NCBI GenBank assembly: GCA_009392915.1
Contig: CP045477.1
Coordinates: 1-64,000, forward strand
Source of the DNA: Candidatus Forterrea multitransposorum CG_2015-17_Forterrea_25_41
GTDB taxonomy: Archaea > Iainarchaeota > Iainarchaeia > Iainarchaeales > CSSED10-239
Reading direction: 5' to 3'
DNA length: 64,000 nt
Part shown: positions 1 through 38,462 of the stretch, one piece after another
Layout of the letters: every line of letters begins with the position of its first letter
Position numbering within the stretch: position 1 is the stretch's first letter
The notes under the pieces: generated by a model
Databases searched by the model: none
Seen by the model: the letters and a program-made list of their open reading frames with translations, nothing else
What the model was told of the DNA's origin: nothing
Position numbers and translations under genes: made by a program

Positions 1-1092
1 ATGCCAATTTCAAAAAAAAACATATTTTCAAATGTTAAAAACATAGAAGAGTCTATCTTTAAAGATGAACAAGTCTTTTATCCAGACTTTACTCCAGAAA
101 ACATTTTTTCAAGAGATTCACAAATTAAAGAACTTTCTTTTTCTTTAAAACCATTAATTTCAAATAAAAAAGCAAATAATTTTTTAATATATGGACCTCC
201 AGGAACAGGTAAAACTTTAACTTCAAGATTTGTTTTAGAAGAACTTATAAATTATTCTTTAAAAGTTAAATATCTATATGTTAATTGTATACAAGATAAT
301 ACAAGATTTTCTGTATTTTCAAGAATAGTTTCTTTCTTTGGAGGAATAATGCCAAGAAGAGGTCTTGCAGTTGATGAAATTTGGCAAAGAATTAAAGAAC
401 TTTTTTCAAAATCTTCTTTTTCACCAGTAATTATTTTAGATGAAATTGATAAACTTAAAAAAGAAGATCTTTCTGTACTTTTATATGATCTTTCAAGATT
501 TTCTTCAAATAATAAATATTTTACATTAATCTTAATTACAAACAATAAATCTTTTATTTTAGACTTAGATTCAAGAACCCAAAGCTCTTTATTTTTAAAA
601 GATTTAGAATTTAAAAAATATTCTTCTCAAGACCTAAAACTAATCTTAAAAGAAAGAGTTAATTATGGGCTTATTGAGAATGCAATTTCAGAAGATTTAA
701 TAGGGTATATTGCAGGATATGCAGCAATAAGAGATGGAGATGCAAGAATTGCTATTGATCTACTATATAAAGCTGCAAAGCAATCTGAAAGAGAGGGTAA
801 TTTGATGATCTCTAAAGAGGTTTTATTGTCTGTTTCAAACTTAATAGATTCTATTAAACTTAATGAAAAGATAGCTTCTCTTTCAAAAGAAGAATTTATG
901 TTTTTAAAATCTCTAAAAGAAGATCAAACAACAACAGAAGCATATTCTTCTTTAAAAGAAATTGCTCAAAGAACAAAAAGTAGATATCTTTTAAAATTTG
1001 AAAAATTAGGTTTTATTTCTTTTTCTCCAGTAAAAGAAGGAAAAGGTAATGTTAGAATAATATCTTTAAATTTTAATAAAGAATTATTATAA
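1..1092 (+). CDS. cdc6: Orc1/Cdc6 replication initiator (AAA+ ATPase plus winged helix)
   Basis: Walker A GPPGTGKT, Walker B ILDEID, Orc1-type N-terminal and C-terminal winged-helix region; 363 aa. Confidence 0.85.
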   Translation: MPISKKNIFSNVKNIEESIFKDEQVFYPDFTPENIFSRDSQIKELSFSLKPLISNKKANNFLIYGPPGTGKTLTSRFVLEELINYSLKVKYLYVNCIQDNTRFSVFSRIVSFFGGIMPRRGLAVDEIWQRIKELFSKSSFSPVIILDEIDKLKKEDLSVLLYDLSRFSSNNKYFTLILITNNKSFILDLDSRTQSSLFLKDLEFKKYSSQDLKLILKERVNYGLIENAISEDLIGYIAGYAAIRDGDARIAIDLLYKAAKQSEREGNLMISKEVLLSVSNLIDSIKLNEKIASLSKEEFMFLKSLKEDQTTTEAYSSLKEIAQRTKSRYLLKFEKLGFISFSPVKEGKGNVRIISLNFNKELL

Positions 1093-1111
1093 AAAAACAG
1101 GTGATTAAATC

Positions 1112-1366
1112 ATGGGCTTTTTAAAAACTGATAAAAAAAAAGTAGAAGTTAAAGATGGAGATAAAGTAATTAAAGCTGCAGAAAAATTAGGTGTGCCTTT
1201 TAGTTGTAGAGAAGGTATTTGTGGTACTTGTAAAGTAAAGGTTGTAGATGGTTATGATAATTTAGCTGAAAAAACAAGTAATGAAGAATTTATGGATTTA
1301 AAAAAAAATGAAAGATTAATGTGTCAATGTAAACTTAAGTCAGGAGAAGTAAAAATTAAATTTTAA
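1112..1366 (+). CDS. 2Fe-2S ferredoxin-like protein
   Basis: CREGICGTCK (Cx4CxxC) motif plus a downstream Cys; 84 aa; RBS-like GGTGA upstream; convergent with the OFOR genes. Confidence 0.55.
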   Translation: MGFLKTDKKKVEVKDGDKVIKAAEKLGVPFSCREGICGTCKVKVVDGYDNLAEKTSNEEFMDLKKNERLMCQCKLKSGEVKIKF

Positions 1367-2207
1367 TTATTTTTTTTAGTTTCTCTAAATTTCTTTTTCT
1401 TTTAAAAAGAGGATTTTTATTTTTTTGATAAACATTTTGCATTTCTTCAAAGGTTTTTTTCTTTTTAGAAATATAAATTATTCCTAAAGGCATTTTTTCA
1501 GTTTCTAAAGCTTTTAAAATTGCATTTTCTTTATTTTCTGGATTATAATCTTTTTCTAAATAATATGTGTTTTCTTTAAACCATTCAAAAGTATTTATTT
1601 TATTAAAAGTTACACATGGTTGAAGAATATCTACAATTGATAAGCCTTTATGATAAATTGCTTTTTGTAAGATTTCTTTTGTTTCTTTCAAGTCCCCTAT
1701 GTTTGCTCTAGCAACAAAAGATGCATCTAAAGAAATAGCTAGAGAAATTGGGTTTAAGGGCTCTAAAATAACCCCTGTTGTCTGAACTATAGTTTTCATT
1801 CCTTTTTTACTTGTAGGAGATGCTTGTCCTTTTGTTAAACCATAAATCATATTGTTGTGCACAATTATTGTAATATCTGGATTTCTTCTAATAGCATGTA
1901 AAAAATGATTTCCACCTTCTCCATACATATCTCCATCTCCACTTGTAACAATTACTTTTAAATCAGGATTAACAGCTTTAATAGCGGTTGCAGGAGGAAG
2001 TGATCTTCCGTGAAGTCCATTAAAAAAATTTGTATTAATATATTGTGGTGTTTTTGCCGCTTGTCCTATTCCTGAAACTAAAACTATATTTTCTGGTTTT
2101 AGTTTGGTTTCTTCTAGTACTTTTTTTAAAACTAAGTGTATTCCAAAATTTCCACATCCAGGGCACCATGCAATTTCTGTTTGGTTTGAAAAATCTATTT
2201 TGTTCAT
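1356..2207 (-). CDS. korB: 2-oxoacid:ferredoxin oxidoreductase beta (TPP-binding) subunit
   Basis: N-terminal WCPGCGNFGI and TPP-binding GDGD motif; 283 aa; immediately downstream of the fused gamma-alpha ORF. Confidence 0.85.
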   Translation of the reverse strand: MNKIDFSNQTEIAWCPGCGNFGIHLVLKKVLEETKLKPENIVLVSGIGQAAKTPQYINTNFFNGLHGRSLPPATAIKAVNPDLKVIVTSGDGDMYGEGGNHFLHAIRRNPDITIIVHNNMIYGLTKGQASPTSKKGMKTIVQTTGVILEPLNPISLAISLDASFVARANIGDLKETKEILQKAIYHKGLSIVDILQPCVTFNKINTFEWFKENTYYLEKDYNPENKENAILKALETEKMPLGIIYISKKKKTFEEMQNVYQKNKNPLFKRKRNLEKLKKIIKI

Positions 2208-2210
2208 ATT

Positions 2211-5093
2211 TTAATCTAACCTCTCTGTTATTTCTTGCATGACCTCTTCTACAAAGAATTGCAATCCATTATATTTTAATATTTTAATAACTTCTTTATT
2301 TGTTTCTTTTTTAATAAGTTCTGCAAATTGCCCTGTTGCATTTCCTTCAATAACTATTATTTTTTTTGCAGATTTAAGTAAGTCTTTTGTTCCAGGATAA
2401 ATTGGATATAATTGTTCATAATGAAGATATTTTATTTTTTTATTATCTATTTTTTCAACAGCTTCTTTAATTGTTTCAAAAGTACTTCCCCATCCAATAA
2501 TAATTATTTCATTACCTTTTCCAATAATTGTTGGCTTTAAACTTTCAAAAGTTATATCTTCTATTCTTTTTAATCTTTTTTTAACCATTTTAATTCTTAA
2601 AGAAAAATCTTCTGTAATATGTCCTGTTTGGTCATGTTCGTCACTATCCACACAAACTAAACCTTTTCCAAAGCCAGGGATTGCTCTAGGGGAAATTCCA
2701 CTTTCTGTAAAAGCATATCTTTGATAATCTTTTTTACTTTCTATAATATATTTTTCTTTATCTTCTTTTATTTCTATTTTTTCAAAAGGATAAAGATTTT
2801 CCATAAAATATTGATCTGTTAATATAAAAACAGGAATTTGGTATTTTTGAGAATCAATAAAAGCTTTGTTTGTAATCTCTACAGCACTTTTTAAATTTTT
2901 AGGAGCATATACAATTCTTGCAAATTCTCCATGTCCAGCGTGCATAACTAAATTTAAATCTTCTTGAGCTGTTCTTGTTGGAAGTCCAGTTGCAGGTCCT
3001 GGTCTTTGAGCTACATGTATGACTAATGGAGTTTCTATCATTCCTGCAAGGCTTACACCTTCACACATAAGTGCAAATCCTCCACCAGATGTGTTTGTAA
3101 GTGATCTTGCACCTGCAAAAGATGCTCCTAAACACATGTTTATTGCTGAAATTTCATCTTCTGCTTGTTCTACAATAATATCAAAATTTTCTCTTAATTT
3201 TGCTAGATTTTGTAAAACACCTGTTGATGGTGACATTGGGTATGCTGATATAAAATCACACCCTCCAGCAATTGCTCCGTATGCTATTGCTTGAGCACCT
3301 GTAAATAAATTATTTAATTTTATTTGTTTATTTTTTTTAATTTTTGGTAAATTTTTAACTATTTTTAAAATTTCTTTTCCTTTTAAAATACCTTTTTCTG
3401 CTGCTTGAATATTTTTTAAAACAATTTCTTTTCCTTTTTTTGAAAAACTTTCTTTTAGTTGTTTTATAAAATATTTTTTATTAATATTTAGTATTCCTAA
3501 AAGAGTTCCTGTTGCAACAGTGTTTGCAAAAACTTTATTTCCTATTTTTTCTGCAATTTCTTTAAAGGAAACATCAATTGTTTTATTTTTAAGCCCTAAT
3601 TTTCTAACTTCTTCTTTATTTCCAATAATAATTGTATTTTCATCAATTCTTTCTTTTAAATGTTCTATAGTATTTTTATCTAAAGCAAGTAAAATATCTA
3701 TTTTTTTTAAATTTCCTCTTCTTTCTTTTTCTGTAAGTCTAATAGATATGGTGTTAACTCCTCCTCTAACTCTTGACATATATTCAGAGTTTGAAGAAAA
3801 GTAAAAACCTTCTTCTTTAAGTATTTTAAGTAAAACATTTTGAACAGATACAAGACCTTGGCCTGCTTCTCCAGAAAGTACAATTGATAATTCTTTTTCA
3901 TCTATTTTTTTATTTTTAATTTCTTTTTTAAAAAGTTCTTTTGTTTTTTCAGTAATTATCTTTGAAAATTCATTTAATTTTTTAAAGTTTTCTTTTTTAG
4001 GAATTCCTGTTGAAATTTCTCCTAAAATAACTTCTGCTTCAAAATTATTTGTAATATTTTCAAATTCTTTAAAGGCTTCCCCACCCCATTCTTTAGATCC
4101 AATAAATCCAATAATTTTTGTTTTTGGTTTTAATTTATTTAAAGTACTAACTGTTGTTGAAACAATAGGGTGAAGCCCACCTAAAAAAGTAGGAGATGCT
4201 ATAATTAAAGTTGACGCATCTACCATTTCAATTGCAAGTTGTCCTATCTCTGTAGTTGTAAGATTATATTCTTTAACTTTATTGCCTTGGTTAATAAGTT
4301 TAGAAGTTAAATATTCAACCATTTTTTTTGTACTTCCGTGCATAGAAGTATACCCAATAATTATTTTTGGTTTGGTTTCTTTTTTTGACCAATTATAGTA
4401 TTTATCAATTATCCAATCAACATCTTGGTATATTTTTCCATGACTTGGAGCTATTATTTTTGGATTATATTCTTTTATTTTTTCTAAGTTTTTAAGAATA
4501 TAATTTCTAAAAGGCATCATTATTTCTGCATAATATCTTTTAGCAGGTAATTCTATTTCTTTTGTATCTTTAACAAATAATTCGCTTGTTGCAAGATGTG
4601 CTCCAAAAAAATCACAAGAAAACAAAATTTTATCTTCTTTTAAAAAAGTAGACATAGTTTCTGGCCAATGAACCCAAGGAGTATAAATAAATTTTAAGGT
4701 TTTATCTCCTAAGCTAATTTCTTCTAAGTCTTTAATAACTTGTATTCTTTTTTCCTCAATTACCATTTCATCTAAAAGTATTTTTTTACAAAGAGGATTA
4801 CAAATTAATTTTGCTTTTGGAAATTTATTTAAAATTATAGGTATTGATCCAGAGTGATCTTGTTCTGCATGATTAGATATAATATAATCTATATTTTTAA
4901 TATTTAATTTTTCTAAGTTTAAAATAAGTTCTTCTGTTTTTGTAATGTCAACAGTGTCTATTAAAGCTGTTTTTTTAGATCCAATTATTAAGTATGAATT
5001 GTAGCTAGTTCCATCTGGAAGATAGATTAGTTCATCAAAAAGCTTTCTATCCCAATCAATGGCTCCAACTGAATATATGTTTTTCTTAATCAT
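2211..5093 (-). CDS. Fusion protein: flavodiiron protein (MBL-like diiron domain plus flavodoxin domain) joined to OFOR gamma and alpha subunits
   Basis: N-terminal ~400 aa carry the FDP diiron ligand motif NHAEQDHSGS and downstream His/Asp ligands, then a flavodoxin-type SMHGSTKKM; a lysine-rich linker; a KorC-like segment (LSGEAGQGLV); a KorA-like segment (TGAQAIAYGAIAGGCDFISAYPMSPST). Single uninterrupted 960-aa ORF. Confidence 0.7.
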   Translation of the reverse strand: MIKKNIYSVGAIDWDRKLFDELIYLPDGTSYNSYLIIGSKKTALIDTVDITKTEELILNLEKLNIKNIDYIISNHAEQDHSGSIPIILNKFPKAKLICNPLCKKILLDEMVIEEKRIQVIKDLEEISLGDKTLKFIYTPWVHWPETMSTFLKEDKILFSCDFFGAHLATSELFVKDTKEIELPAKRYYAEIMMPFRNYILKNLEKIKEYNPKIIAPSHGKIYQDVDWIIDKYYNWSKKETKPKIIIGYTSMHGSTKKMVEYLTSKLINQGNKVKEYNLTTTEIGQLAIEMVDASTLIIASPTFLGGLHPIVSTTVSTLNKLKPKTKIIGFIGSKEWGGEAFKEFENITNNFEAEVILGEISTGIPKKENFKKLNEFSKIITEKTKELFKKEIKNKKIDEKELSIVLSGEAGQGLVSVQNVLLKILKEEGFYFSSNSEYMSRVRGGVNTISIRLTEKERRGNLKKIDILLALDKNTIEHLKERIDENTIIIGNKEEVRKLGLKNKTIDVSFKEIAEKIGNKVFANTVATGTLLGILNINKKYFIKQLKESFSKKGKEIVLKNIQAAEKGILKGKEILKIVKNLPKIKKNKQIKLNNLFTGAQAIAYGAIAGGCDFISAYPMSPSTGVLQNLAKLRENFDIIVEQAEDEISAINMCLGASFAGARSLTNTSGGGFALMCEGVSLAGMIETPLVIHVAQRPGPATGLPTRTAQEDLNLVMHAGHGEFARIVYAPKNLKSAVEITNKAFIDSQKYQIPVFILTDQYFMENLYPFEKIEIKEDKEKYIIESKKDYQRYAFTESGISPRAIPGFGKGLVCVDSDEHDQTGHITEDFSLRIKMVKKRLKRIEDITFESLKPTIIGKGNEIIIIGWGSTFETIKEAVEKIDNKKIKYLHYEQLYPIYPGTKDLLKSAKKIIVIEGNATGQFAELIKKETNKEVIKILKYNGLQFFVEEVMQEITERLD

Positions 5094-5159
5094 TCTAGAG
5101 TCTATATATAAAACACCTCATAATAAAAAAAAGAAAAATAGTTTTTTTAAAATAAAAAA

Positions 5160-5912
5160 CTATTCTTGGTCAACTCTTGGTGCTAAGAAATATCTAATAG
5201 CAGAAGAGCCGATTGTGTAATTAATTTCAAGTGGCATATCGTCTTTAAGTTTTAAAGTGATTATGCTTTTTGCATTCTTAATCATATTTTGTAAATAGTC
5301 TAAAGTATACATTGCTTTTGCTTTGCTTCCTGAAATTAAAAGATTATTATCATTTGCTTCAATCTCTTGTTTGAATTTCCCTTTACTACTTTGTGTTTCT
5401 AAATAAAATTTATTATTTTCAACTTTTAAAGTGATATGGGAGCTAAAAAGACTTGCATCTTTTAAACCTGCAAGTAATTGATCAGAAGAGATTTGAACTG
5501 TTACATCAAATTGTATTTTAGGAAGAGGTTGTTCTTGTTCTGATACATCTATTAAAGGGATATGGAAGCTTCTTTTTGATTTTCCAATAAGTTCTATTAA
5601 GATAAATGATTTATCATCTTTAATTTCTAAACTTAATTTATCGTCACTTGATGAGTGGTTTAAGATTTGTAAGAAATTATTTATATTTATTCCAAAAGCA
5701 ATATTTTTTTCATCATCTTTAATATCTACTAAAAATTCTTCAAATGAATCTTTTGGCATTACAAAATCAACTAAACTTATTTGTCCAGGATCTGTTGCTC
5801 TTAAAAACATTTTTTCACTATCGATTGTAAATAAACCTTCGTTTATTAATACTCCAATAGCATCCATACTTTTTTGGAATTCTTTTACATCTTTTATTAT
5901 TAATTTAATCAT
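5160..5912 (-). CDS. pcn: DNA polymerase sliding clamp PCNA
   Basis: 250 aa; typical archaeal PCNA N-terminus MIKLIIKDVKEFQKSMDAI and two-domain length. Confidence 0.8.
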   Translation of the reverse strand: MIKLIIKDVKEFQKSMDAIGVLINEGLFTIDSEKMFLRATDPGQISLVDFVMPKDSFEEFLVDIKDDEKNIAFGININNFLQILNHSSSDDKLSLEIKDDKSFILIELIGKSKRSFHIPLIDVSEQEQPLPKIQFDVTVQISSDQLLAGLKDASLFSSHITLKVENNKFYLETQSSKGKFKQEIEANDNNLLISGSKAKAMYTLDYLQNMIKNAKSIITLKLKDDMPLEINYTIGSSAIRYFLAPRVDQE

Positions 5913-5976
5913 CTTTAAATCTCCCCCTTAGCTAATATATTATATAAGCGATAATATTAAAATACTAATCATTTGT

Positions 5977-6495
5977 TTATAAAACTAATAATACATAAAC
6001 CCAACCTAATATTAAAACTACTCTTATTAAAAAAGATTGATCTAATACTTTAAATAACCAAGAAAGTATTAAAATTAGAATAGTTAAAGGAAGTAGTAAT
6101 ATCTTATAAAACCACTTAAACAAAGATTGTTTCAATCTGTAGCTTTTTTTTACAGAATCAAAAATGTTATTTGCATCTTGTCTTGAAGGTATTGAAAAGA
6201 AAAGCGCTGATATTGAAACCCATATAATTAATAATTTATAAATTAAAATCATTTCTTTTTTTAAAAGCAAAATTCCTATTATGGCTATTGCAATATTAAA
6301 AAAGAACGGAAATATAGAAATTATTATATTTTTATAAGATCTAGATTCATCATGAACTACATAACCATCTGAAAAACTAAATAATTTAATTTTTCTAATC
6401 CTTACTCCTAAAATAATACATGCAAATGCATGTGCAAGTTCATGGATAGTAATTCCAATAAATAATATTTTGGAAATAAAAACATTAAGGTTCAT
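5977..6495 (-). CDS. Polytopic membrane protein with HExxH motif (putative intramembrane zinc metalloprotease)
   Basis: HELAHAF within a hydrophobic segment; several predicted TM helices; 172 aa. Confidence 0.3.
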   Translation of the reverse strand: MNLNVFISKILFIGITIHELAHAFACIILGVRIRKIKLFSFSDGYVVHDESRSYKNIIISIFPFFFNIAIAIIGILLLKKEMILIYKLLIIWVSISALFFSIPSRQDANNIFDSVKKSYRLKQSLFKWFYKILLLPLTILILILSWLFKVLDQSFLIRVVLILGWVYVLLVL

Positions 6496-16297: not shown

Positions 16298-18844
16298 GTG
16301 TTTTTTATGGATGATGCAAATTTAATGCTTTTAAAAAAGAAAGTAAAAGCTATAAAACAATATAAAGGCCAAGGTACTCAACTTATAAGTCTTTATCTTC
16401 CACCTGATGCAGATAGAAGTTCTGCAACAAAACAATTAACTGATGAAATGAGTCAATCTTCAAATATTAAGAGTGCTCAGACTAGAAAAAATGTACAAGC
16501 AGCTTTAAAAAGAATTATTAATTATTTAAAACAAATTGATTTTAAACTTCCTGAAACAGGTTTAGTTTTATTTTCTGGAGATGTTTCAACTAATCCTTCT
16601 AAATCAGATGTAATTTTACTTGCAATTGCACCTCCTGTAAGACTTACAACTAAGCTTTATTGGTGTGATTCAACATTTCACATAGCTCCTTTAGAAGATA
16701 TGGCACAAACAGATGATGTTTATGGTTTAGTTGTTCTTGACAAACGAGAAGCAACAGTTGCTATTTTAAGAGGAAAATCTAAAGAAATTCTTTTTTCAGA
16801 AACCTCAAATGTTCCTGGTAAAACAAAAGCCGGGGGGCAATGTTTAAAAGATGCTTTTGTATCTTTATCTGATGGGAATTTAATAGATGTTAGTGAAATT
16901 TCTAAAAAGGATATTCTTTCTTCTATGAATTTTAAACAAAATAAATTAATTAATTCTAAGGTTTTAGATAATTGGTCAGTTTCTAAAAATAAAACATATA
17001 TTATTAAAACAAAAGCTCCTGGTACAGAAATAAAAGCTAGTGAAGATCATATATTTTTTGTTTTAACTCCAGATGGTGTTGTTGAAAAAGCTTCAAAAGA
17101 TTTAACTTTAAATGATTATTTGTTATTTCCAGAAAAATTATCTTATAAAAATAAAATTTGGTCTTTTGATACTAAAAAATATATTTCTAAATTAAATAAA
17201 CCTTCTATAAAGATACCTATAAAACTTAATAATGTATTTGCTAAATTTTTAGGTTATTTATTAGGTGATGGTTCTATTGAAACTGATAGATTAACTTTTT
17301 ATGAATCTAGAAAAGATGTTATTTTAGAATATAAAAAGTTATTTGATAAATATTTTAATGTAAATTCTTCTTTAACTTTTAGAGATTCTAAAAATTATTA
17401 TCAATTAAGAGTTAATTCAACTGCTCTTGTAAGATTAATTAAAGAAGAATTTAAGGAAATTAAAAAAGCAAGAGATTCTTTAATACCTTCTAAAATATTA
17501 ACTTCTTCTAATAAAATATTAGCTAATTTTTTAAAAGGATTTTATGATGCTGAAGGTTATATTAATACTTCTAGAAAATCAATAGATATTGGAATAAATA
17601 ATAAAAAAATTGCACAACAACTTCAATTATCATTATTAAGATTTTCAATTATTGGATCTTTACAAGAATATGATAATAAACAAAATCCTTATACAAATAA
17701 CCATAGGTTTGTGATTTCAATTTCTGATAAAGAGTCAATAGATTCTTTTGAAAAAAATATTAATTTTACTTCTTTTGAAAAGCAAAAAAAAATAAAAAAA
17801 ATTCAAAAATTAAAAACAAACATGAGTTTCTCAAGAACACTTCCTGTATATGGTAGTCAGGTTAGATCTGTTGTTACAAAACATGGTTATAATTTAGAAC
17901 TTTTCCCAAAAGTGAGTAGTTTTTTCAATAATAATAGAATGCTTAGTAAATGCTTTTTTAAAAGTTCTGTTTTAGATTATGTTAAAGATAAATCTCTTTT
18001 AAAAGATTTAATTAAATTTTATAATATGCCATTTTTTGCTGCAAAGATAAATTCTATATTTATTGAAAAAAAGAAAACAATTATGACAGACATTTCTGTT
18101 GCTAATAAATCTTTTATTGCAAATGGATTAATTGTTCATAATTCAGCACATAGATTCGAAAGACTAAGAGATAAATATGAAGAAGAGTTTTATAAGAGAG
18201 TAGGTTCTAAAGTAAATACTGCTTTTGTAGATCTTGATAATTTTAAAGGAATGATTGTTGGTGGTCCTGGACTTACTAAAAATGAATTTTTAGAAATTGG
18301 TGATTTAGACCACAGAATAAAAGATAAAGTTTTAGGAACTGTAGATACTTCTTATACAGATGAGTCAGGTATAAAAGAAGTTTTAGATAAATCTGAAGAT
18401 ATTTTAAAAGAAACTGGTTTAGTTCATGAAAGAAAATTAATTAATAAGTTTTTTGAAGACTTAGCAAAAACAGGCCTTGCAAATTATGGTTTTCAAGATG
18501 TAATTGATGCCTTAAATATTGGTAAAGCTTCAACTGTTTTAGTGTCTGAAGGTTTAGAATGGACTGTTTTAATTTTTAAATGTTTATCAGACAAATCTAG
18601 ATTTATAAAAATTGTTAAAGATAAACATGAAGTTTCTGATACTATCTCAAAATTTGAAAATTCTCCAACAGATTGTCCAGAAGGTAAAGCAGAACTTGTT
18701 GAAGAAGTTGATATATATGATTATTTTATAGATATTTCTAAAAATACAAGTGCAAAAGTTGAACTTATTTCTATTGAAACTTTAGAAGGTAAACAATTTT
18801 TTGAAACTTTTGGAGGGCTTGCAGCTTTCTTAAGATATAGGTAA
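16298..18844 (+). CDS. prf1: Peptide chain release factor aRF1 interrupted by an intein
   Basis: NIKS motif (SSNIKSAQ), GGQ motif immediately followed by the intein's Cys; C-extein SAHRFERLR... is the aRF1 continuation; the exteins sum to 414 aa. Confidence 0.85.
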   Translation: MFFMDDANLMLLKKKVKAIKQYKGQGTQLISLYLPPDADRSSATKQLTDEMSQSSNIKSAQTRKNVQAALKRIINYLKQIDFKLPETGLVLFSGDVSTNPSKSDVILLAIAPPVRLTTKLYWCDSTFHIAPLEDMAQTDDVYGLVVLDKREATVAILRGKSKEILFSETSNVPGKTKAGGQCLKDAFVSLSDGNLIDVSEISKKDILSSMNFKQNKLINSKVLDNWSVSKNKTYIIKTKAPGTEIKASEDHIFFVLTPDGVVEKASKDLTLNDYLLFPEKLSYKNKIWSFDTKKYISKLNKPSIKIPIKLNNVFAKFLGYLLGDGSIETDRLTFYESRKDVILEYKKLFDKYFNVNSSLTFRDSKNYYQLRVNSTALVRLIKEEFKEIKKARDSLIPSKILTSSNKILANFLKGFYDAEGYINTSRKSIDIGINNKKIAQQLQLSLLRFSIIGSLQEYDNKQNPYTNNHRFVISISDKESIDSFEKNINFTSFEKQKKIKKIQKLKTNMSFSRTLPVYGSQVRSVVTKHGYNLELFPKVSSFFNNNRMLSKCFFKSSVLDYVKDKSLLKDLIKFYNMPFFAAKINSIFIEKKKTIMTDISVANKSFIANGLIVHNSAHRFERLRDKYEEEFYKRVGSKVNTAFVDLDNFKGMIVGGPGLTKNEFLEIGDLDHRIKDKVLGTVDTSYTDESGIKEVLDKSEDILKETGLVHERKLINKFFEDLAKTGLANYGFQDVIDALNIGKASTVLVSEGLEWTVLIFKCLSDKSRFIKIVKDKHEVSDTISKFENSPTDCPEGKAELVEEVDIYDYFIDISKNTSAKVELISIETLEGKQFFETFGGLAAFLRYR
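16841..18142 (+). mobile_element. Intein (434 aa) with LAGLIDADG homing-endonuclease domain, inserted in the aRF1 GGQ motif
   Basis: Begins with Cys right after AGGQ, ends with HN followed by Ser; LAGLIDADG-like blocks LGYLLGDGSI and LKGFYDAEGYI. Confidence 0.8.
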
Positions 18845-23622: not shown

Positions 23623-24739
23623 TATAATTGTGTTGCATAACTCTTTTTAAAAGTATTGTCTAACCTATTTTATTACTAGATAAAGGAGGTTAGACAATAT
23701 GAATATTAAGAACGAAAAGATTAATAAAAGGAACTGGTCAAAGATAAATTATGGAAAAACAAGACAAATCTTGTTTTTACTAGATAAAAACATTATTTTT
23801 AGTGAAAATGAAAGACTAGTTTCCCAAAATAAAAACAAACCAGGAAGACAATTTATATATAGTGATAGAATAATAGAACTATTAATTGATCTTAAAAATT
23901 ATTTTAAATTTGATTATCGTAAACTACAGGCATTCTGCCTGTTGTTTAATAATGTTATAAAAATAAAAACACCTGACTTTACAACTATTTGTAGAAGAAT
24001 GCACAAATTAGAATTATTTCTAAAAAATATAAAAACAAAAAAAGAACCAACCTTTATAGCTATAGATGGTTCTGGACTTCAAACTACTAATCGAGGAGAA
24101 TGGCTTAGATTAATACACAAAAAAGGAAAAATAAACTTAAGAAATGGATTTGTAAAATTAGTGATTGCAACAGATGTTGCATCTGGAGAAATAACTGGAG
24201 TGTATATTTCAGATGATTCTGATTTTGAAAATAAAAGCTTATCAGATTTATTATACCAAACAATAAATAATCAAAACCAAGAAGTCAAAGGACTTCTTGG
24301 AGATGGGGCATACGATTCTTATGATAACTTTGATATGCTTGATGATATGGGAATAAAACCAATTATCAAAATCAGAAAGAATGCAATTACAACAGAACCT
24401 AATGACGATTATTTAAAAAGAAGAAGAAAACTTGGAAAAAAGAAAAAAATAAAAAGAATTGAAGTTGCAAAAAAGCAACTTAAAAATGTAGATGACTGGA
24501 AACAAAAAAATGAGTATAATAAAAGGTGGGTTGTTGAATACACGTTTAGTGTATTCAAAAGACTATTCGGACATAGTGTGTACTCTAAAAGAAAGAAATA
24601 TGTCAAAAATGAAGTAATTTCTAAAGTAAATTTGTATAATAAATTATTAAATATCAATTAAGAAAAAAATAAAATGAATTAAAAAAAGAAATAAGCTAAA
24701 AATATTGTGTAAAACACAATATTTGTGCAACACAATTTT
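23623..24739 (+). mobile_element. IS5-family-like insertion sequence with ~17-bp imperfect terminal inverted repeats
   Basis: Left end ATAATTGTGTTGCATAA (23623-23639) and right end TTGTGCAACACAATTTT (24723-24739) are reverse complements, with a 12/12 core AATTGTGTTGCA (23626-23637) / TGCAACACAATT (24726-24737); single transposase ORF inside. Confidence 0.6.
23699..24661 (+). CDS. DDE transposase, IS5-like (DDE_Tnp_1 type)
   Basis: IAIDGSGL (D), LLGDGAYDS (D), C-terminal VVEYTFSVFKRLFG (E...K) typical of IS5/IS4-type transposases; 320 aa. Confidence 0.75.
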   Translation: MNIKNEKINKRNWSKINYGKTRQILFLLDKNIIFSENERLVSQNKNKPGRQFIYSDRIIELLIDLKNYFKFDYRKLQAFCLLFNNVIKIKTPDFTTICRRMHKLELFLKNIKTKKEPTFIAIDGSGLQTTNRGEWLRLIHKKGKINLRNGFVKLVIATDVASGEITGVYISDDSDFENKSLSDLLYQTINNQNQEVKGLLGDGAYDSYDNFDMLDDMGIKPIIKIRKNAITTEPNDDYLKRRRKLGKKKKIKRIEVAKKQLKNVDDWKQKNEYNKRWVVEYTFSVFKRLFGHSVYSKRKKYVKNEVISKVNLYNKLLNIN

Positions 24740-24818: not shown

Positions 24819-26192
24819 ATGGCTATAGACAAAAGATTTTTTTTAGGGATAACTATTAGTAAAAAAAGAAAAGCAATTTCTCCTTTAATTGCCACTATTC
24901 TTTTAATAGTTGTTGCCGTTGCAATTATAGCTATTATTGTTTCCTGGGGAAAAGGATTTACCAATGATTCTTTAAGCAAAGCCTCTGGTCTTGAAATTTA
25001 CACTGAATCAGAAACTTCTTTTTACTTGCAAGTAAAAAATTCAATAAACGGAAGAACTGTTGTTCAATATAATCCTCCTTATAATTCTCCTCACACCTCT
25101 TTAACCATAACAGGTTATAGCCTACATGGTAACACGAATATTAATCCCATAGATCCACCAATTACAATAACTGCAAACCAAACTGCAGTTATTGATCATG
25201 GTATTTTATTTCCAGAATTAAATTTAGTTTTATATTTGGATAATGATCGAATGATTATTAAAACTGATCTTTTACAAACTATTAAATCTCCTCTTTCTTG
25301 TCCAGAAGGTTATGTTTCTGTTCCAGGAAACCACTTATATGGAACTATGAATGAAAGTGGGGGTTTTTGTGTTTCAAAATATGAGATGAAAATGGATAGA
25401 ACAGGAGATGGAATAGGAAATCTTGTAGCTGATTATCCTGATTGTAACACCGGTTCTTTAACATATAATACTTATAGTTATGAATTATGCCCTACACCAG
25501 GCACTTTAGTTTCTACTCCAGAAGGTTCTCCCATAGCAAGAATCACACAAACTGAAAGCATATCAGCCTGTGAAGCTATTGGTGGTCATTTAATAACAAA
25601 TAACGAATGGATGACCATTGTACGAAACATAGAACAAGTTCCATCTAATTGGTCAGGTGGAGCAGTTGGTGATGGCTACCTTCCAAGAGGGAATTCATCT
25701 TCTTCAGGAGCTATGGAAGGCTTTGATCAACTTTCAGGAACTACCAAAAGAACCTTGACCTTAACAAACGGAGAGGTAATTTGGGATTTAGCAGGAAATG
25801 TAAGACAATGGACCAGTGACACTATTCAAAGAAAGGACCAGCCTGATGGTTTTAATAATGTAGATGATAGTAATAATACTTCTGGTTTTAATTGGTTTGA
25901 TTATTTTAAGGGCGGTGGAGTAGATCAATATATTTATTCTGATAATTTAGGTAACACCACCTTAAAGTATAAAGATTTATTTTTATTAACTAGTAATACT
26001 TATAATGCAACAGATAATGGTGTTGGAAGGATTTATACTTATAGTGATTTTAGTGATACTAGTACAACTGAGTACGCGTTTTTGCGCGGTGGTCACTGGG
26101 GCAATGGCACTAATGCCGGGGTCTTGCACCTGGTCTTGAACAAGACTCCTGGGTCCCGGAGCATCCTCATCGGCCTGCGCTGTGTCAAGTAG
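24819..26192 (+). CDS. DGR target: pilin-like (class III signal peptide) surface protein with C-terminal FGE/C-type-lectin-fold variable region
   Basis: N-terminus KAISPLIATILLIVVAVAIIAII (archaeal pilin-like); C-terminus YAFLRGGHWGNG...LIGLRCVK resembles the FGE-sulfatase/CLec fold used by DGR variable proteins; its last ~120 nt form a GC-rich VR matching the TR. Confidence 0.75.
   Translation: MAIDKRFFLGITISKKRKAISPLIATILLIVVAVAIIAIIVSWGKGFTNDSLSKASGLEIYTESETSFYLQVKNSINGRTVVQYNPPYNSPHTSLTITGYSLHGNTNINPIDPPITITANQTAVIDHGILFPELNLVLYLDNDRMIIKTDLLQTIKSPLSCPEGYVSVPGNHLYGTMNESGGFCVSKYEMKMDRTGDGIGNLVADYPDCNTGSLTYNTYSYELCPTPGTLVSTPEGSPIARITQTESISACEAIGGHLITNNEWMTIVRNIEQVPSNWSGGAVGDGYLPRGNSSSSGAMEGFDQLSGTTKRTLTLTNGEVIWDLAGNVRQWTSDTIQRKDQPDGFNNVDDSNNTSGFNWFDYFKGGGVDQYIYSDNLGNTTLKYKDLFLLTSNTYNATDNGVGRIYTYSDFSDTSTTEYAFLRGGHWGNGTNAGVLHLVLNKTPGSRSILIGLRCVK
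26072..26192 (+). repeat. DGR variable repeat (VR), 3' end of the target gene
   Basis: ~55% GC in a ~25% GC genome; near-identical to 27297-27417 with 13 mismatches, 12 of them at template adenines; identical 3' 24 nt CATCGGCCTGCGCTGTGTCAAGTAG (IMH-like). Confidence 0.8.
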
Positions 26193-26498
26193 TTTTTAGA
26201 AAAAATATATTTCATCCCCAAACCATGTATTTAGACGGGTGAGACGGCAAGACGGCCAGACGGAAGAAGCCATGGCAACCTAAACGTTTCAAGATTGTTT
26301 TTGCAAAAAAATGAAAAAACGTATTTGTGAAGTTTTAAAAAAAAGAAATGAGTGTGATTTTTGCAAATTTTTTTGATTTTTTTCAAAAAAATTTGCTAGC
26401 CGTTAAACCAAATGGTTTTTTAATGTAAAAATAATTTTTATAATAATTAAGTTTTAAAGAAAAAATACTTTATATCTTGGACAAACAATGTGATTTAA

Positions 26499-26885
26499 AT
26501 GAGTTTAGTTGGAAATGAAAAAGGAATTCTAAATTTTGGTGTTTACAAGGAGCTTTTCCCAATCGTTATTGAAACTTATAATTTTTTAGAAAATAATAAA
26601 TCTTTATTTAAAGTAGATTTTGTTTATACAGATACTGTTAAAAATTTAATAGATATTCTTTCTTTTCTTTCCAAAGGGTATAATAAATTTCATTCTAATG
26701 AAAAATCTTTACTTTACTCTTATTCAAGAGATTGTGTTTCTACAACCCAATCTAATCTTTTAATATTATCTGAACTTAATAAAGATCTCTCAAAAGAAAA
26801 AACCTTATATTTTTATAATCAATTTGAGGATAAAATAAAGTATTTTAATGGTTTAATAAAAAAGATTGAAGAAAATAAAAACTAG
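26499..26885 (+). CDS. Hypothetical protein inside the DGR cassette
   Basis: 128-aa ORF between the target gene and avd; no recognisable motif. Confidence 0.3.
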   Translation: MSLVGNEKGILNFGVYKELFPIVIETYNFLENNKSLFKVDFVYTDTVKNLIDILSFLSKGYNKFHSNEKSLLYSYSRDCVSTTQSNLLILSELNKDLSKEKTLYFYNQFEDKIKYFNGLIKKIEENKN

Positions 26886-26896
26886 GGTATATTATT

Positions 26897-27226
26897 ATGT
26901 TATTTGACTTAAAGTTATATAAAGAAACTTATAACTTTTTACTTTATATTTATCCTGAAATAAATAAATTCCCTAAATCAGATAAATATTCTTTAGGAGA
27001 GGATATTAAAAAAACAACTATTTCTTTAATGTCAAATATTGTTCTTTTTTCAAAGCATAATGAAAATACTTTAAAAGAAGCAGATAAAAACTTAGAATTA
27101 CTAAGAATATATATTAGGCTTTCTTTTGATTTAAAAATAATCTCTTTTAAAAAATATGAGGTTATTTCAAGGCAATTAAATGATATTGGTAATTTATTAG
27201 GTGGTCTTTTAAAACAAAAGATTTAA
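26897..27226 (+). CDS. avd: Accessory variability determinant (Avd)-like four-helix-bundle protein
   Basis: 109 aa, predicted all-helical, basic; sits immediately upstream of TR and RT (canonical avd-TR-RT order). Confidence 0.55.
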   Translation: MLFDLKLYKETYNFLLYIYPEINKFPKSDKYSLGEDIKKTTISLMSNIVLFSKHNENTLKEADKNLELLRIYIRLSFDLKIISFKKYEVISRQLNDIGNLLGGLLKQKI

Positions 27227-27296
27227 ATATTTTTTCAACTAATAGTTATGTTGTTCTTTTAAATAAAAAGAATAGGGCTTTTACAGAAAAAAACAG

Positions 27297-27417
27297 GTGC
27301 GCGTTTTTGCGCGGTGGTAACTGGAACAATGGCACTAATGCCGGGGTCTTGAACCTGAACTTGAACAATACTCCTGGGAACCGGAACAACAACATCGGCC
27401 TGCGCTGTGTCAAGTAG
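27297..27417 (+). repeat. DGR template repeat (TR)
   Basis: GC-rich noncoding copy of the VR containing AAC/AAT codons (would encode N-rich ...NWNNGTNAGVLNLNLNNTPGNRNNNIGLRCVK); located between avd and the RT. Confidence 0.8.
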
Positions 27418-27678
27418 TTTCTCCTTATTATTTTTAATAATAAGGTTTTATCAGAGTTTGTATGTTTATTTTTTTATCTAAAAAAACATATAAAGCGAAT
27501 ATTTTAAAAAACTACATCTGTAAAATGTTTCCTGATTGCACATAATGTGTGCCATAAGAACTATTTTGTTTTTATGTTAAAAAATCAAATATAAAGATAA
27601 GTTATTACATTTAGTATTTTTATAGTCTGTAAAAAGAAATCTGTAATAACTCTTAACTTTAAATAAGGCTTTTTAAAA

Positions 27679-28695
27679 ATGAAATCATACAATAACCTTT
27701 GGCAAGAATTCACTTCTTTTAAAAATATTTTTAATGCCTATAAAAAAGCAAGAAAGTCCACACCAAACAAAAAGTATATCTTGCAATTTACCACAAATTT
27801 AGAAAAGGAGTTATTCTTATTACAAGATCAATTAATTTCAGAAAATTTTCAATTTTCTCCTTACAGAAGTTTTAAAGTTTATGAACCTAAAGAAAGAACA
27901 ATAAGTGCACCTATTTTCAGGGATGTTGTTGTTCAGCATGCCATAATAAACATTATTGAACCTATTTTTGATAAAACCTTTATAGATAACTCTTTTGCTT
28001 GTAGAAAAGGAAAAGGCACACATAAAGGGCTTTTTGAAATTAAAAAAGTAATTCAAACCCCAAATCATCCAAAATACTATTTAAAACAAGATGTAAAGAA
28101 ATACTTTCCTTCAGTTCATAAACCTACCTTAAAAGAAATAATTTTTAAAAGAATTAAGGATGCAAGATTACTTTCTCTAATATATAAAATAATTGATAGT
28201 TATTCTTTTGATTTAAATCAAATTCAAAAAGGTATCCCTATAGGTAATTTAACCTCTCAGTTGTTTGCAAATATTTATTTAAACCATTTAGATCAGTATG
28301 TTAAGCATTCTTTAAAAATTAAACATTATTATAGATATGTAGATGATTTTTTAATATTTTCAAACAATAAAAGAAAATTACATGTTTTTAGAAGAAAAAT
28401 AAAATTATTTTTAAGTAAAGAACTATTATTAGATGTTCCAAAAAATAAAACTTATATAAACTTAGTAAGTAAAGGAGTTGATTTTTTAGGTTATAAGGTA
28501 TTTCCTTCAAACATAAGATTAAGAAAATCAAATCTTAAAAGATTTCTTCTAAGACAAAATAAAAATAACTTTCTTCTAAAAAAAAATCAAATTTCTAAAC
28601 TTAACTATAATTTTTCTCTTTTTTCTTTTTTAGGTTATGCAAAGCATGCAAACTCTTATAATCTCTTAAGTACTTTAAATATTAATGAGTTATAG
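27679..28695 (+). CDS. DGR-type reverse transcriptase
   Basis: RT motifs: ISAPIFRDVVVQHAI, IGNLTSQLFANIYL (the DGR-specific SQ variant of QGxxxSP), YYRYVDDF (YxDD catalytic motif); 338 aa. Confidence 0.85.
   Translation: MKSYNNLWQEFTSFKNIFNAYKKARKSTPNKKYILQFTTNLEKELFLLQDQLISENFQFSPYRSFKVYEPKERTISAPIFRDVVVQHAIINIIEPIFDKTFIDNSFACRKGKGTHKGLFEIKKVIQTPNHPKYYLKQDVKKYFPSVHKPTLKEIIFKRIKDARLLSLIYKIIDSYSFDLNQIQKGIPIGNLTSQLFANIYLNHLDQYVKHSLKIKHYYRYVDDFLIFSNNKRKLHVFRRKIKLFLSKELLLDVPKNKTYINLVSKGVDFLGYKVFPSNIRLRKSNLKRFLLRQNKNNFLLKKNQISKLNYNFSLFSFLGYAKHANSYNLLSTLNINEL
28589..28687 (+). repeat. 99-bp direct repeat, copy 1 (3' end of the RT gene)
   Basis: Identical to 30138-30236. Confidence 0.85.
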
Positions 28696-37617: not shown

Positions 37618-37699
37618 GCAGAGGTGGCGGAGTGGTCAAACGCGCCAGCCTTGAGAGCTGGAGCCTTGCGCTACACGAGTTCGAATCTCGTCCTCTGCG
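37618..37699 (+). tRNA. tRNA-Ser (anticodon UGA)
   Basis: Cloverleaf with acceptor stem GCAGAGG/CCTCTGC, anticodon loop CUUGAGA, long variable arm, T-arm ACGAG-TTCGAAT-CTCGT; no encoded CCA. Confidence 0.8.
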
Positions 37700-37730
37700 C
37701 TTTATCTTTTAAAATATAGGAATTTTTATT

Positions 37731-38063
37731 ATGATTAAAGAAAACATTTCTTTTCAAGATTTTTTAAAACTTGATATAAGAATTGGAACAATTGTTGAGG
37801 CTGAAGCTGTTGAGGGTTCTGATAAATTAATAAAATTAATAATTGATTTTAAAGATTTTAAAAGACAGATTTTAGCTGGTATTAAAACAAAATATCAACC
37901 AACTGATTTATTAAACAAACAAATTCCTGTTATTGTAAATTTAGAACCTAGAAAAATGATGGGTTTTGAAAGTCAAGGAATGATCTTAGCTGTTGGAGAT
38001 AAAACTTTAGATGCTTTACTTTTACCATCTGAGCCTGTATCGGAAGGCTCGATTGTACACTAA
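37731..38063 (+). CDS. tRNA-binding domain protein (CsaA/Trbp111/EMAP-like OB fold)
   Basis: LDIRIGTIVEAEAVEGSDKL ... PVIVNLEPRKMMGFESQGMILAV is the canonical Myf/tRNA-binding domain signature; 110 aa. Confidence 0.75.
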   Translation: MIKENISFQDFLKLDIRIGTIVEAEAVEGSDKLIKLIIDFKDFKRQILAGIKTKYQPTDLLNKQIPVIVNLEPRKMMGFESQGMILAVGDKTLDALLLPSEPVSEGSIVH

Positions 38064-38084
38064 TTTTTTTTTAAAACTAAAAAT

Positions 38085-38166
38085 GCAGAGGTGGCGGAGT
38101 GGTCAAACGCGCAAGCCTGGAAAGCTTGAGCCTCGTGCTACGCGAGTTCGAATCTCGTCCTCTGCG
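38085..38166 (+). tRNA. tRNA-Ser (anticodon GGA)
   Basis: Near-identical backbone to tRNA-Ser(UGA); anticodon loop CUGGAAA. Confidence 0.8.
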
Positions 38167-38197
38167 CTTTTTTCTTTTTTAATTTAATATTTATTTT

Positions 38198-38286
38198 GCA
38201 GAGATGGCGGAGTGGTCAAACGCACAAGTTTCGAAAACTTGATTAAGGTTTTTTCCTTTACATGAGTTCAAATCTCATTCTCTGCG
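38198..38286 (+). tRNA. tRNA-Ser (anticodon CGA)
   Basis: Acceptor GCAGAGA/TCTCTGC, anticodon loop UUCGAAA, ~20-nt variable arm with AAGG/CCTT stem, T-arm ATGAG-TTCAAAT-CTCAT. Confidence 0.7.
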
Positions 38287-38462
38287 TAGCTGGTTTCGGT
38301 CAGCTAGCACCCAATGATTTTGCGTTTGTTAACGCTTATTTAAACTTTCTTTTTAAAAGAAGTGATTTTCCCCCAAAACTTTTTTTCTTTAAAAATTGTG
38401 TTTTAAAAATTTTTAATCTATTTTATATCTATTTAAAATACTTTTGCCTCTCTTTAATATTT

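Follow-up and report, generated by a model that had tools for sequence, protein, structure and literature searches.

We analysed a stretch of 64,000 nucleotides (hereafter the window), namely positions 1 to 64,000 of contig CP045477.1 (assembly GCA_009392915.1) of the archaeon Candidatus Forterrea multitransposorum. Near its beginning, at 2211..5093 on the reverse strand, lies a single gene of 960 codons that joins the core of a flavodiiron protein (FDP), through a linker, to the alpha subunit of a 2-oxoacid:ferredoxin oxidoreductase (OFOR). Both are textbook enzymes of anaerobes: FDPs remove O2 and NO, and few steps of central metabolism are as sensitive to O2 as those catalysed by OFORs. The gene of the OFOR beta subunit follows directly downstream (1356..2207, reverse strand), its ATG lying 3 nt after the alpha stop codon, and a [2Fe-2S] ferredoxin gene (1112..1366, forward strand) converges on it with an overlap of 11 nt. 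An initial annotation, made from the letters of the window, had described this arrangement, and its claim that one polypeptide unites a complete FDP core with an OFOR was borne out by the reading frame, by the domain matches and by about 23 clusters of related proteins.

Domains and residues of the fused protein

The stop codon of the fused gene occupies 2211-2213, and the list of open reading frames (ORFs) in the window shows zero internal stops. All the domains expected from the initial annotation were recovered by Pfam along the 960-aa protein: ODP at residues 31-219 (2.7e-27, 96 bits against a cutoff of 27.2) together with Lactamase_B at 29-218, a weak flavodoxin domain at 245-322 (flavodoxin models scored 20 versus 27 bits, below cutoff), and then POR at 410-569 (2e-30), POR_N at 606-838 (2.4e-56) and PFOR_II at 862-942.

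The metallo-beta-lactamase-like diiron domain comprises residues 1-235 (4389..5093, reverse strand), as defined by the ODP match and by alignment with structures in the Protein Data Bank (PDB), and AlphaFold2 (AF2) models it with a per-residue confidence (pLDDT) of about 90. Its seven diiron ligands are all present and are invariant in an alignment of 21 fusion proteins, which upholds the HxExDH site with further ligands noticed at first sight. They are H75, E77, D79 and H80 of the H75-x-E77-x-D79-H80 motif (4854-4871), H142 (4668-4670), D161 (4611-4613) and H218 (4440-4442), all on the reverse strand. Directly after it comes the flavodoxin-like FMN domain (residues 240-383; 3945..4376, reverse strand) with the loop Y248-T-S-M-H252-G-S-T255, in which Y248, H252 and G253 are invariant among the same 21 members. 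Flavodoxin_5 and TIGR01753 also match this domain weakly, and AF2 gives it an alternating strand/helix fold with pLDDT 85-93 (about 85-95 for residues 1-388). In a PDB search, residues 4-379 aligned end to end with Moorella FprA (1ycf, 1.6e-64), the alignment being continuous to residue 379 of 398, and D. gigas ROO (1e5d) and methanogen FprA (2ohh) were matched as well. An NCBIfam flavorubredoxin model covers residues 2-384 (2e-69), under its equivalog cutoff with 234 versus 635 bits. With its full diiron ligand set and the directly following C-terminal flavodoxin-like domain, this half belongs to the FDP core family, and the FMN domain proposed in the initial annotation is present.

Residues 384-401 form the linker (TKELFKKEIKNKKIDEKE; 3891..3944, reverse strand), which is encoded by A-rich DNA with A5-A7 runs. 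It is the least conserved segment of the family alignment, with a majority-residue frequency of 0.32 versus 0.58-0.78 in the domains, and residues 390-397 have pLDDT below 50. The AF2 monomer of the whole fusion thus consists of two well-folded modules and a disordered linker (global score pTM 0.57), a model which fits a mobile tethered FDP domain.

The remainder of the protein is a complete OFOR alpha subunit. TIGR03710 (OAFO_sf) matches residues 402-955 over model positions 2-561 with 613 bits against a cutoff of 482.75, so the segment is a member of this family. The initial annotation had spoken of fused gamma and alpha subunits. Both are indeed in one chain, but no fusion event is involved, this being the normal alpha subunit of two-subunit OFORs as described by TIGR03710; only the join of FDP and alpha is unusual. 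Domain III, the gamma-like POR domain with a GEAGQG motif, spans residues 402-570 (3384..3890, reverse strand) and begins where the TIGR03710 match begins. Domain I, the POR_N domain that binds thiamine pyrophosphate (TPP), spans residues 599-840 (2574..3299, reverse strand), and domain II spans residues 857-960 (2214..2525, reverse strand) with weak PFOR_II/Transketolase_C matches, TIGR03710 coverage to residue 955 and pLDDT 86-92. The equivalog for the archaeal, Sulfolobus-type OFOR alpha (NF041170) scored only 372 bits against 800, and the nearest unfused alpha relatives are bacterial-type proteins of 48-52% identity.

The catalytic residues of domain I were located by alignment to 5b48_A, the alpha subunit of a Sulfolobus tokodaii OFOR (StOFOR). 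They include Y618-P-M-S-P622, which is a YPITP-type motif with Thr changed to Ser, and QAEDEI at 643-648, which we take to carry the TPP-activating Glu. R697 and D818 correspond to StOFOR Arg344 and Asp468, and these four elements are invariant or nearly so in the family; Cys612 (3258-3260) lies in the same domain. Roles have been assigned in StOFOR to the YPITP motif, Arg344, Asp468 and beta Lys49 (PMC5020499). Both of the residues that StOFOR1 needs for the use of 2-oxoglutarate are conserved here, Asp468 of alpha as D818 and Lys49 of beta as K52, so that a broad pyruvate/2-oxoglutarate specificity is plausible for the window enzyme.

The beta subunit has 283 amino acids, consists of domain VI and carries no FNR extension. 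It is a member of NF008821 (462 bits versus 438) and TIGR02177 (368 versus 262), and it also matches TPP_enzyme_C and PFO_beta_C. Alignment to 5b46_B places a C15-P-G-C18 motif (2154-2165), Q49 (2061-2063), K52, the TPP motif GDG 90-92...NN 118-119, and C198 (1614-1616). Three of the cluster cysteines are therefore conserved, while the segment 'SGIGCSGK' of StOFOR reads 'SGIGQAAK' in the window beta, with Gln49 at a StOFOR Cys position (we take the corresponding StOFOR ligands to be numbered Cys46 and Cys197); four Cys ligands for a [4Fe-4S] cluster are thus not found within beta. The CXGC motif itself is known from the beta subunits of two-subunit OFORs (PMC5020499). We rejected the missing Cys as a trait specific to the fusion, because Gln stands at this third cluster position in 120 of the 120 closest beta homologues, fused or unfused, of this OFOR subfamily. 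Gln49 co-varies perfectly with an extra Cys in alpha, Cys612, seven residues before the YPMSP motif in 'GGC(N/D)F..YPMSP' (loci L001-L006, L034, L035, L070, L072 and L087-L093); where beta keeps its Cys, alpha has Leu or Val (L040, L068 and L081). The fourth [4Fe-4S] ligand may thus have moved from beta to alpha, as a ligand swap between subunits.

The same OFOR-alpha family has another type of N-terminal fusion. In P0152 (857 aa) and P0161 (830 aa), cytochrome b5 and DUF2231, a predicted membrane protein, precede POR and POR_N. Since such fusions also occur, the N-terminus of OFOR alpha seems to be used recurrently as an attachment point for electron acceptors.

The convergent ferredoxin is of plant type, with 84 amino acids, a Fer2 match of 3.3e-15 and the cysteines Cys32, Cys37, Cys40 and Cys71.

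Occurrence and descent of the fusion

An indel in the A-rich junction might falsely have joined separate fprA and korA genes. The A5-A7 homopolymers speak for such an artefact, as do several shorter database entries, namely the alpha-only proteins P0390 (564 aa) and P0394 (559 aa) and the FDP/alpha pair P0388/P0389. We examined these entries and rejected all of them as split genes. First, the contig behind P0390 (L093; NCBI GCA_009994675.1, JAACQY010000017.1) is 100% identical to window positions 1001-6000 and has the identical 960-codon frame open. Second, P0394 likewise results from an annotation start, at a TTG codon, over an open frame. Third, the split of P0388/P0389 is due to a frameshift inside alpha on a 4.5-kb contig, and P0388 reads across the junction into alpha. 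The splits are thus annotation truncations and one frameshift away from the junction, and the junction itself is free of a frameshift or stop both in the window and in L093. Moreover, a codon scan found no in-frame ATG, GTG or TTG between residues 376 and 438, which makes a separate start of a complete alpha impossible, and the frame is never broken over linkers of 18 to 241 residues in about 23 clusters from four data sources. We consider the artefact effectively refuted, and the fusion of FDP and alpha is almost certainly genuine.

The public record of L093 contains only a 564-aa 'alpha subunit' (P0390) that starts within the linker at an ATA codon; for the 1.25 kb that encode the FDP, no gene is given. 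Because the annotator began alpha at this ATA, the fusion is invisible in the record, which lacks the FDP half of the same sequence and illustrates a blind spot of annotation.

A word-indexed search of 5.8 billion proteins yielded about 23 protein clusters with ODP, Lactamase_B, POR and POR_N, of 942-1186 aa and 45-100% identity. They come from independent assemblies in JGI, ENA, NCBI and Logan, and the named ones are metagenome-assembled genomes of Woesearchaeota or Nanoarchaeota, so that the fusion, sought in related archaea as the initial annotation had suggested, does occur in other DPANN assemblies. Proteins of 960 aa with at least 90% identity to the window protein are encoded on dozens of contigs from the same four sources. 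In an exhaustive HMMER scan of 1.84 billion representatives at the 50%-identity level, only P0014 and P0020 matched both halves, and both belong to the window family; the fusion is therefore rare and confined to this family. A scan of genome contigs with an alignment of the FDP and junction, which is no taxonomic census, gave 0 fusions among its best 80 loci and was dominated by ordinary class-A FDPs sharing WVHWPETM/KRYYAEIM. On the evidence of these sequences, the fusion is selectively maintained in DPANN archaea.

The relatives can be divided into four groups by gene order. Group A (the window and L087) has FDP-alpha, a beta of 283-285 aa and a convergent Fer2, with no FNR. In group B (L001, L088), FDP-alpha is followed by a beta-FNR protein of about 513 aa and a convergent Fer2. 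Group C (L006, L089) shows RNase_T, a divergent Fer2, FDP-alpha and beta-FNR. Group D (L003, L004, L090, L091) has FDP, a long linker and alpha, followed by a beta-FNR-Fer2 protein of 631-715 aa. Groups A-C have linkers of 18-24 aa, group D linkers of 27-241 aa. Most relatives thus have an FNR-like NAD(P)H module appended to beta, in some cases together with Fer2. These beta-FNR(-Fer2) fusions form about 17 clusters, at least 10 of which have the same longest contig as an FDP-alpha cluster, and no such fusion was found outside the FDP-alpha system. Fer2 orthologues of the window type (52-81% identity) are adjacent or fused in 10 of the 10 distinct fusion loci and in both loci of a related FDP-FNR type described below. 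They are absent at all 80 of the unfused class-A FDP loci of the same clade that served as a control set, which are the best 80 loci of the genome-contig scan.

About 10 of these 80 unfused loci, from unrelated phyla, have genes for OFOR alpha and beta no more than 8 kb away from the FDP gene, including L035 and L072 (Pirellulales), L034, L046 and L070 (Chloroflexi/Dehalococcoidia), and L040, L045, L068 and L081. Such pairs may reflect a looser, recurrent association of FDP and OFOR.

We built neighbour-joining trees with bootstrap, which use distances only and are weak at deep nodes. The fused alpha domains (n=20) are monophyletic with 85% bootstrap, and groups A, B, C and D each receive 99-100%. 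The FDP-half tree recovers the same four groups, and this congruence suggests that the fusion arose once, long ago, and that both halves have been inherited together since; in the FDP half, a clade of all fusions plus FDP-FNR receives only 40% support.

Among FDPs, the closest relatives of the fused half are themselves fusions, P0044 and P0048 (52-56% identity) and P0201. These proteins of about 620-660 aa consist of an FDP core and an FNR-like part (FAD_binding_6/NAD_binding_1), and beside P0044 as well as P0048 lies a small, divergently oriented Fer2 gene. The FDP-FNR proteins are probably self-sufficient NAD(P)H:O2 oxidoreductases. Their loci read RNase_T, Fer2, FDP-FNR (L092, 3423-5399) and Fer2, FDP-FNR at a contig end (L094, 521-2491), which is the neighbourhood of group C minus alpha and beta. 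Identity amounts to 52% for the flanking RNase_T genes and to 62-67% for the Fer2 genes, and the FNR on the beta of L006 is 53% identical to that of P0044/P0048. This match of neighbourhoods implies that the genes of OFOR alpha and beta are placed, in-frame, between an FDP part and an FNR part which other genomes encode as one gene. In other words, a korAB operon is nested in-frame inside an FDP-FNR gene, and sister lineages show the 'before/after' state. The FDP tree places P0044/P0048 inside the (A,B,C) clade (98%), as the sister of group C (98%). Two histories can be considered, an insertion of korAB into an FDP-FNR gene with subsequent loss from the lineage of P0044/P0048, or a precise excision. 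Loss in that lineage is favoured by the nesting within the tree, whose deep nodes are weak.

Under either history, FDP, Fer2 and FNR form an ancestral functional set, into which the OFOR was recruited. The lineage of the window (group A) has, by the same reading, lost the FNR module and represents the minimal version of FDP-alpha, beta and ferredoxin. A tblastn search found no FNR module elsewhere in the 64-kb window (E > 0.9). The initial annotation had considered only the OFOR as a source of electrons, and it missed the FDP/Fer2/FNR oxidase system that hosts the OFOR pair and offers NAD(P)H as a second source in the relatives.

Other FDP-core fusions occur among the closer relatives, as judged by precomputed Pfam labels only: P0052 combines FDP with hemerythrin and ScdA_N, P0056 with an EamA transporter domain and P0063 with PALP.

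A possible route from 2-oxoacids to oxygen

From the observed architecture, residue conservation, co-inheritance and gene linkage we infer an electron path, O2 as the substrate and a physiological role. We somewhat favour the reading that FDP-alpha, beta and Fer2 together constitute a self-contained, soluble, water-forming 2-oxoacid:O2 oxidoreductase. Beta would be co-transcribed with FDP-alpha. A 2-oxoacid (pyruvate and/or 2-oxoglutarate) and coenzyme A (CoA) would react with decarboxylation on TPP, and the electrons would leave through the beta cluster. External ferredoxin docks on StOFOR in a large pocket between domains III and VI, and the single cluster is located close to the surface of this pocket (PMC5020499). 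In the fused protein, the electrons would likewise exit at the surface of this docking pocket, which is edged by domain III, and pass from the beta cluster either to the [2Fe-2S] ferredoxin, serving as a dedicated carrier to the FDP, or directly to the tethered flavodoxin-like domain. They would then move from FMN across the interface of the head-to-tail FDP dimer to the diiron site, at which O2 would be reduced to water. FDPs need such a dimer, as a distance of about 40 A separates FMN from Fe-Fe in a single chain (PMC9364112). The net reaction would be 2 oxoacid + 2 CoA + O2 -> 2 acyl-CoA + 2 CO2 + 2 H2O. A fermentative cell without a respiratory chain would gain two things, the removal of O2 close to the O2-labile OFOR and an electron sink that reoxidises ferredoxin. 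In groups B-D, FNR would add an NAD(P)H donor or an NAD(P)+ acceptor, so that NAD(P)H forms a second point of entry or exit, while in the window lineage the OFOR would be left as the only built-in electron source after the loss of FNR.

Several points support this coupling. Both enzymes look competent, for the diiron ligands, FMN loop, OFOR motifs and three cluster cysteines are conserved. An 18-residue tether connects the flavodoxin domain of the FDP with the first strand of domain III, and domain III borders the ferredoxin pocket. Since the (alpha-beta)2 OFOR and the FDP are both obligate dimers, their stoichiometry fits, and an alpha2-beta2 complex with one FDP dimer would be natural. The best comparative argument is that group A lost FNR and kept FDP-alpha, beta and Fer2, which suggests that electrons from the OFOR alone suffice for a useful function. 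The initial annotation had imagined an O2-reducing module that is fed by the OFOR or protects it, and this picture is consistent with the Fer2 linkage, the co-inherited halves and the tether to domain III; its lack of the FNR module as a second source is what needed amending.

Other points weigh against this coupling. The beta cluster lacks the canonical third Cys, having Gln49 instead, and its type and potential are uncertain. AF2 gives no docking of the FDP onto the OFOR (pTM 0.57), the distance from cluster to FMN is not fixed by the model, and a head-to-tail FDP dimer on an 18-residue linker may not fit the geometry of (alpha-beta)2. The analysis covers 64 kb of the genome, and the remainder could encode an FNR or a rubredoxin that serves as partner. 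The O2/NO determinants, discussed below, are mixed. Finally, NAD(P)H may be the main donor across the family and the link to the OFOR partly structural, given that the nearest FDPs are FDP-FNR proteins and most fusion loci have FNR on beta.

This last point leads to the strongest rival, in which the halves are co-localised without channelling. The FDP would then be an on-board O2 scavenger that shields the OFOR, reduced mainly by other donors (FNR and NAD(P)H in the relatives, an unlinked reductase in the window organism), and the fusion would secure 1:1 stoichiometry and proximity. The direct FDP-FNR relatives, whose FNR is 53% identical to that on beta, fit this idea, as does the finding of beta-FNR in the FDP-alpha system only. 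Furthermore, the FDP-FNR loci keep Fer2 without an OFOR, hence Fer2/FNR alone can feed such an FDP, and AF2 shows no fixed interface between FDP and OFOR. However, group A dropped FNR and kept FDP-alpha, beta and Fer2 tightly linked, and the window holds no FNR module. OFORs also reduce ferredoxins by design, so that Fer2 is the obvious shared carrier, and the attachment point at domain III edges the ferredoxin pocket. We regard co-localisation without channelling as unlikely.

As for the terminal acceptor, the initial annotation had called FDPs O2/NO reductases; the FDP identity stood, and the sequence does not decide between O2 and NO. Asp49 stands at the position of Asp52 in E. coli flavorubredoxin (FlRd), which is NO-selective, while His252 in the 'SMHGST' loop is as in the O2-specific methanogen FprA. 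We dropped a prediction from these two published selectivity positions because of this mixed signal. If the fused FDP were primarily a nitric-oxide reductase (NO to N2O) working on OFOR electrons in defence against nitrosative stress, Asp49 would be in keeping with it. The PDB entry that matches best, 1ycf, bears the name 'nitric oxide reductase' in its deposition, and the flavorubredoxin NCBIfam models are the best FDP matches, although below their cutoffs. On the other hand, these models fall far short (234 versus 635 bits), the loop His agrees with the O2-specific methanogen F420H2 oxidases where E. coli has Ser, and the neighbours in the relatives are related to peroxide or O2, with no denitrification genes. 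In group D, a TrxR-like Pyr_redox_2 gene lies directly upstream and AhpC further upstream in L004 (1683-12167) and L090 (870-11791), with a 2-hydroxyacid dehydrogenase directly after the operon. L090 also has a cytochrome b5 gene upstream, L091 (10608-11774) a malic enzyme gene nearby, and L089 (7970-10891) two photolyase-family genes after the fusion operon. These neighbours fit oxidative stress and 2-oxoacid supply, and on account of AhpC, TrxR-like and photolyase genes, which are context only, we prefer O2 over NO as the substrate. A primary role in NO reduction appears improbable.

The system might also run in reverse, as a 2-oxoacid synthase (reductive carboxylation) with the flavodoxin domain of the FDP as electron input. 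Some two-subunit OFORs are reductive, such as MmOGOR (6n2n, 228 bits to the alpha part), and flavodoxins can serve PFORs, as a family name indicates. Nevertheless, an intact and invariant diiron O2/NO site would be pointless in such an enzyme, the FMN and diiron centres of FDPs have potentials far above the roughly -500 mV needed, and, as a rule, DPANN genomes of this type encode a fermentative and no autotrophic metabolism. Reverse operation is hardly credible.

We next set the oxidative reading, in which 2-oxoacid electrons reach O2 through the FDP, beside known systems. According to PMC6033852 and PMC9364112, the only modules added to the core in the published FDP classes A-H are rubredoxin, short rubredoxin, NROR and flavin reductase, and natural FDP-reductase fusions are self-sufficient oxidases. 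The window protein shares with these classes (for example class A Moorella FprA, 1ycf, and class F C. difficile CD1623 and T. vaginalis TvFDPF) the two-domain core and seven ligands. In contrast to them, its C-terminal partner is a 560-residue OFOR alpha (TPP/Fe-S), the reductant would be a 2-oxoacid and not NAD(P)H, and a beta subunit and separate ferredoxin are also required. With an extension made of POR, POR_N and PFOR_II it falls into none of the classes B-H, and both FDP-OFOR alpha and FDP-FNR are outside classes A-H.

On the OFOR side, StOFOR1/2 (5b46-5b48) and the Magnetococcus MmOGOR (6n2n) have the same alpha order III-I-II, a beta domain VI with TPP and a single cluster, and no ferredoxin domain V. 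With StOFOR the window enzyme also shares the YPITP-type motif and the equivalents of Arg344, Asp468 and beta Lys49, besides passing the TIGR03710 and NF008821 cutoffs. It differs from both in the 400-residue N-terminal FDP, in the beta Gln for the third cluster Cys with its co-varying alpha Cys, and in the FNR with or without Fer2 on the beta of its relatives.

A functional parallel in anaerobic protists is the chain from PFOR over a [2Fe-2S] ferredoxin to an FDP, in which O2-labile pyruvate oxidation is likewise linked through ferredoxin to an FDP making water. The FDP of the Trichomonas hydrogenosome reportedly takes pyruvate-derived electrons via ferredoxin (Smutna et al. 2009). In Stygiella, ferredoxin is fused C-terminally to the FDP of a PFO-containing organelle (PMC4989108; also PMC6856725). 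Protist parts are, however, separate or joined as FDP-Fd only, and their PFOR is a large homodimeric three-cluster enzyme, whereas the OFOR of the window is a single-cluster two-subunit enzyme covalently joined to the FDP. Another OFOR-family enzyme fused to a flavoprotein is pyruvate:NADP+ oxidoreductase (PNO) of Euglena and Cryptosporidium, a homodimeric PFOR with C-terminal flavodoxin-like FMN and FNR-like FAD/NADPH modules. The FNR-bearing relatives distantly resemble it in combining OFOR, flavodoxin-like domain and FNR in one complex. PNO differs in having no diiron domain, a C-terminal flavoprotein and NADP+ as acceptor; the window protein lacks domain V and the CPR-like module, carries its flavoprotein with a diiron site at the N-terminus and is thus no PNO. 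PNO is mentioned in PMC6856725.

The best NCBIfam matches of the window Fer2 are sub-threshold ones to the Fer2 domains of BenC, PaaE, YfaE and MmoC. The FNR-Fer2 order of group D is like that of PaaE and phthalate dioxygenase reductase (PDR). PaaE, MmoC, BenC and PDR are FNR-[2Fe-2S] reductases of diiron and Rieske oxygenases, and in them and in YfaE small plant-type 2Fe-2S modules feed non-haem, often diiron, iron. The window Fer2 scores far below the cutoffs and is a member of none of these families, and its presumed acceptor, the FDP, is entered at FMN.

Our literature searches gave no published description of an FDP-OFOR alpha fusion, in agreement with the initial annotation, so that the covalent join is new as far as these searches show. 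If the oxidative reading is true, the protein represents a new FDP class whose reductant is a metabolite and not NAD(P)H, and a new enzyme activity, a 2-oxoacid:oxygen oxidoreductase (H2O-forming) that is testable with three genes of the window. It would also provide a molecular answer to how DPANN archaea without respiratory chains cope with or profit from O2 at oxic-anoxic interfaces. A wider idea, which we offer as possible though rather doubtful, is that FDP-alpha/beta(-FNR)(-Fer2) is a membrane-free 'soluble respiratory' module with which ultra-small DPANN archaea use O2 as terminal acceptor for 2-oxoacid oxidation and gain acyl-CoA for substrate-level ATP synthesis. On this idea, supposed strict fermenters among them would be facultative micro-aerobes, and the FDP class would count as the ninth or tenth. 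The FNR-bearing versions would then be a three-way redox hub (2-oxoacid/NAD(P)H/O2) that arose through in-frame insertion of an OFOR operon into an FDP-FNR gene.

Other features of the window

The rest of the window is ordinary archaeal chromosome of about 24% G+C with no mobile element character, and its genes include those for Orc1/Cdc6, PCNA, a Rad50-like protein, HerA, aRF1, TruD, FttA, the CCA-adding enzyme, AglB and Nre. A likely diversity-generating retroelement lies at 24819-28695, with a variable repeat at 26072-26195, a template repeat at 27297-27420 and a reverse transcriptase ORF (RVT_1) at 27679-28695. Its 124-nt repeat stands at the 3' end of an ORF with an FGE-sulfatase/C-type-lectin fold (24819-26192) and is 89% identical to the copy upstream of the reverse transcriptase; 12 of the 14 mismatches fall on adenines of the copy near the reverse transcriptase. 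An IS-type DDE transposase gene is found next to this region (23699-24661). The aRF1 gene (16298-18844) contains an intein, which carries a LAGLIDADG homing-endonuclease domain. Finally, three tRNA-Ser genes with the anticodons TGA, GGA and CGA are clustered at 37618-38287.

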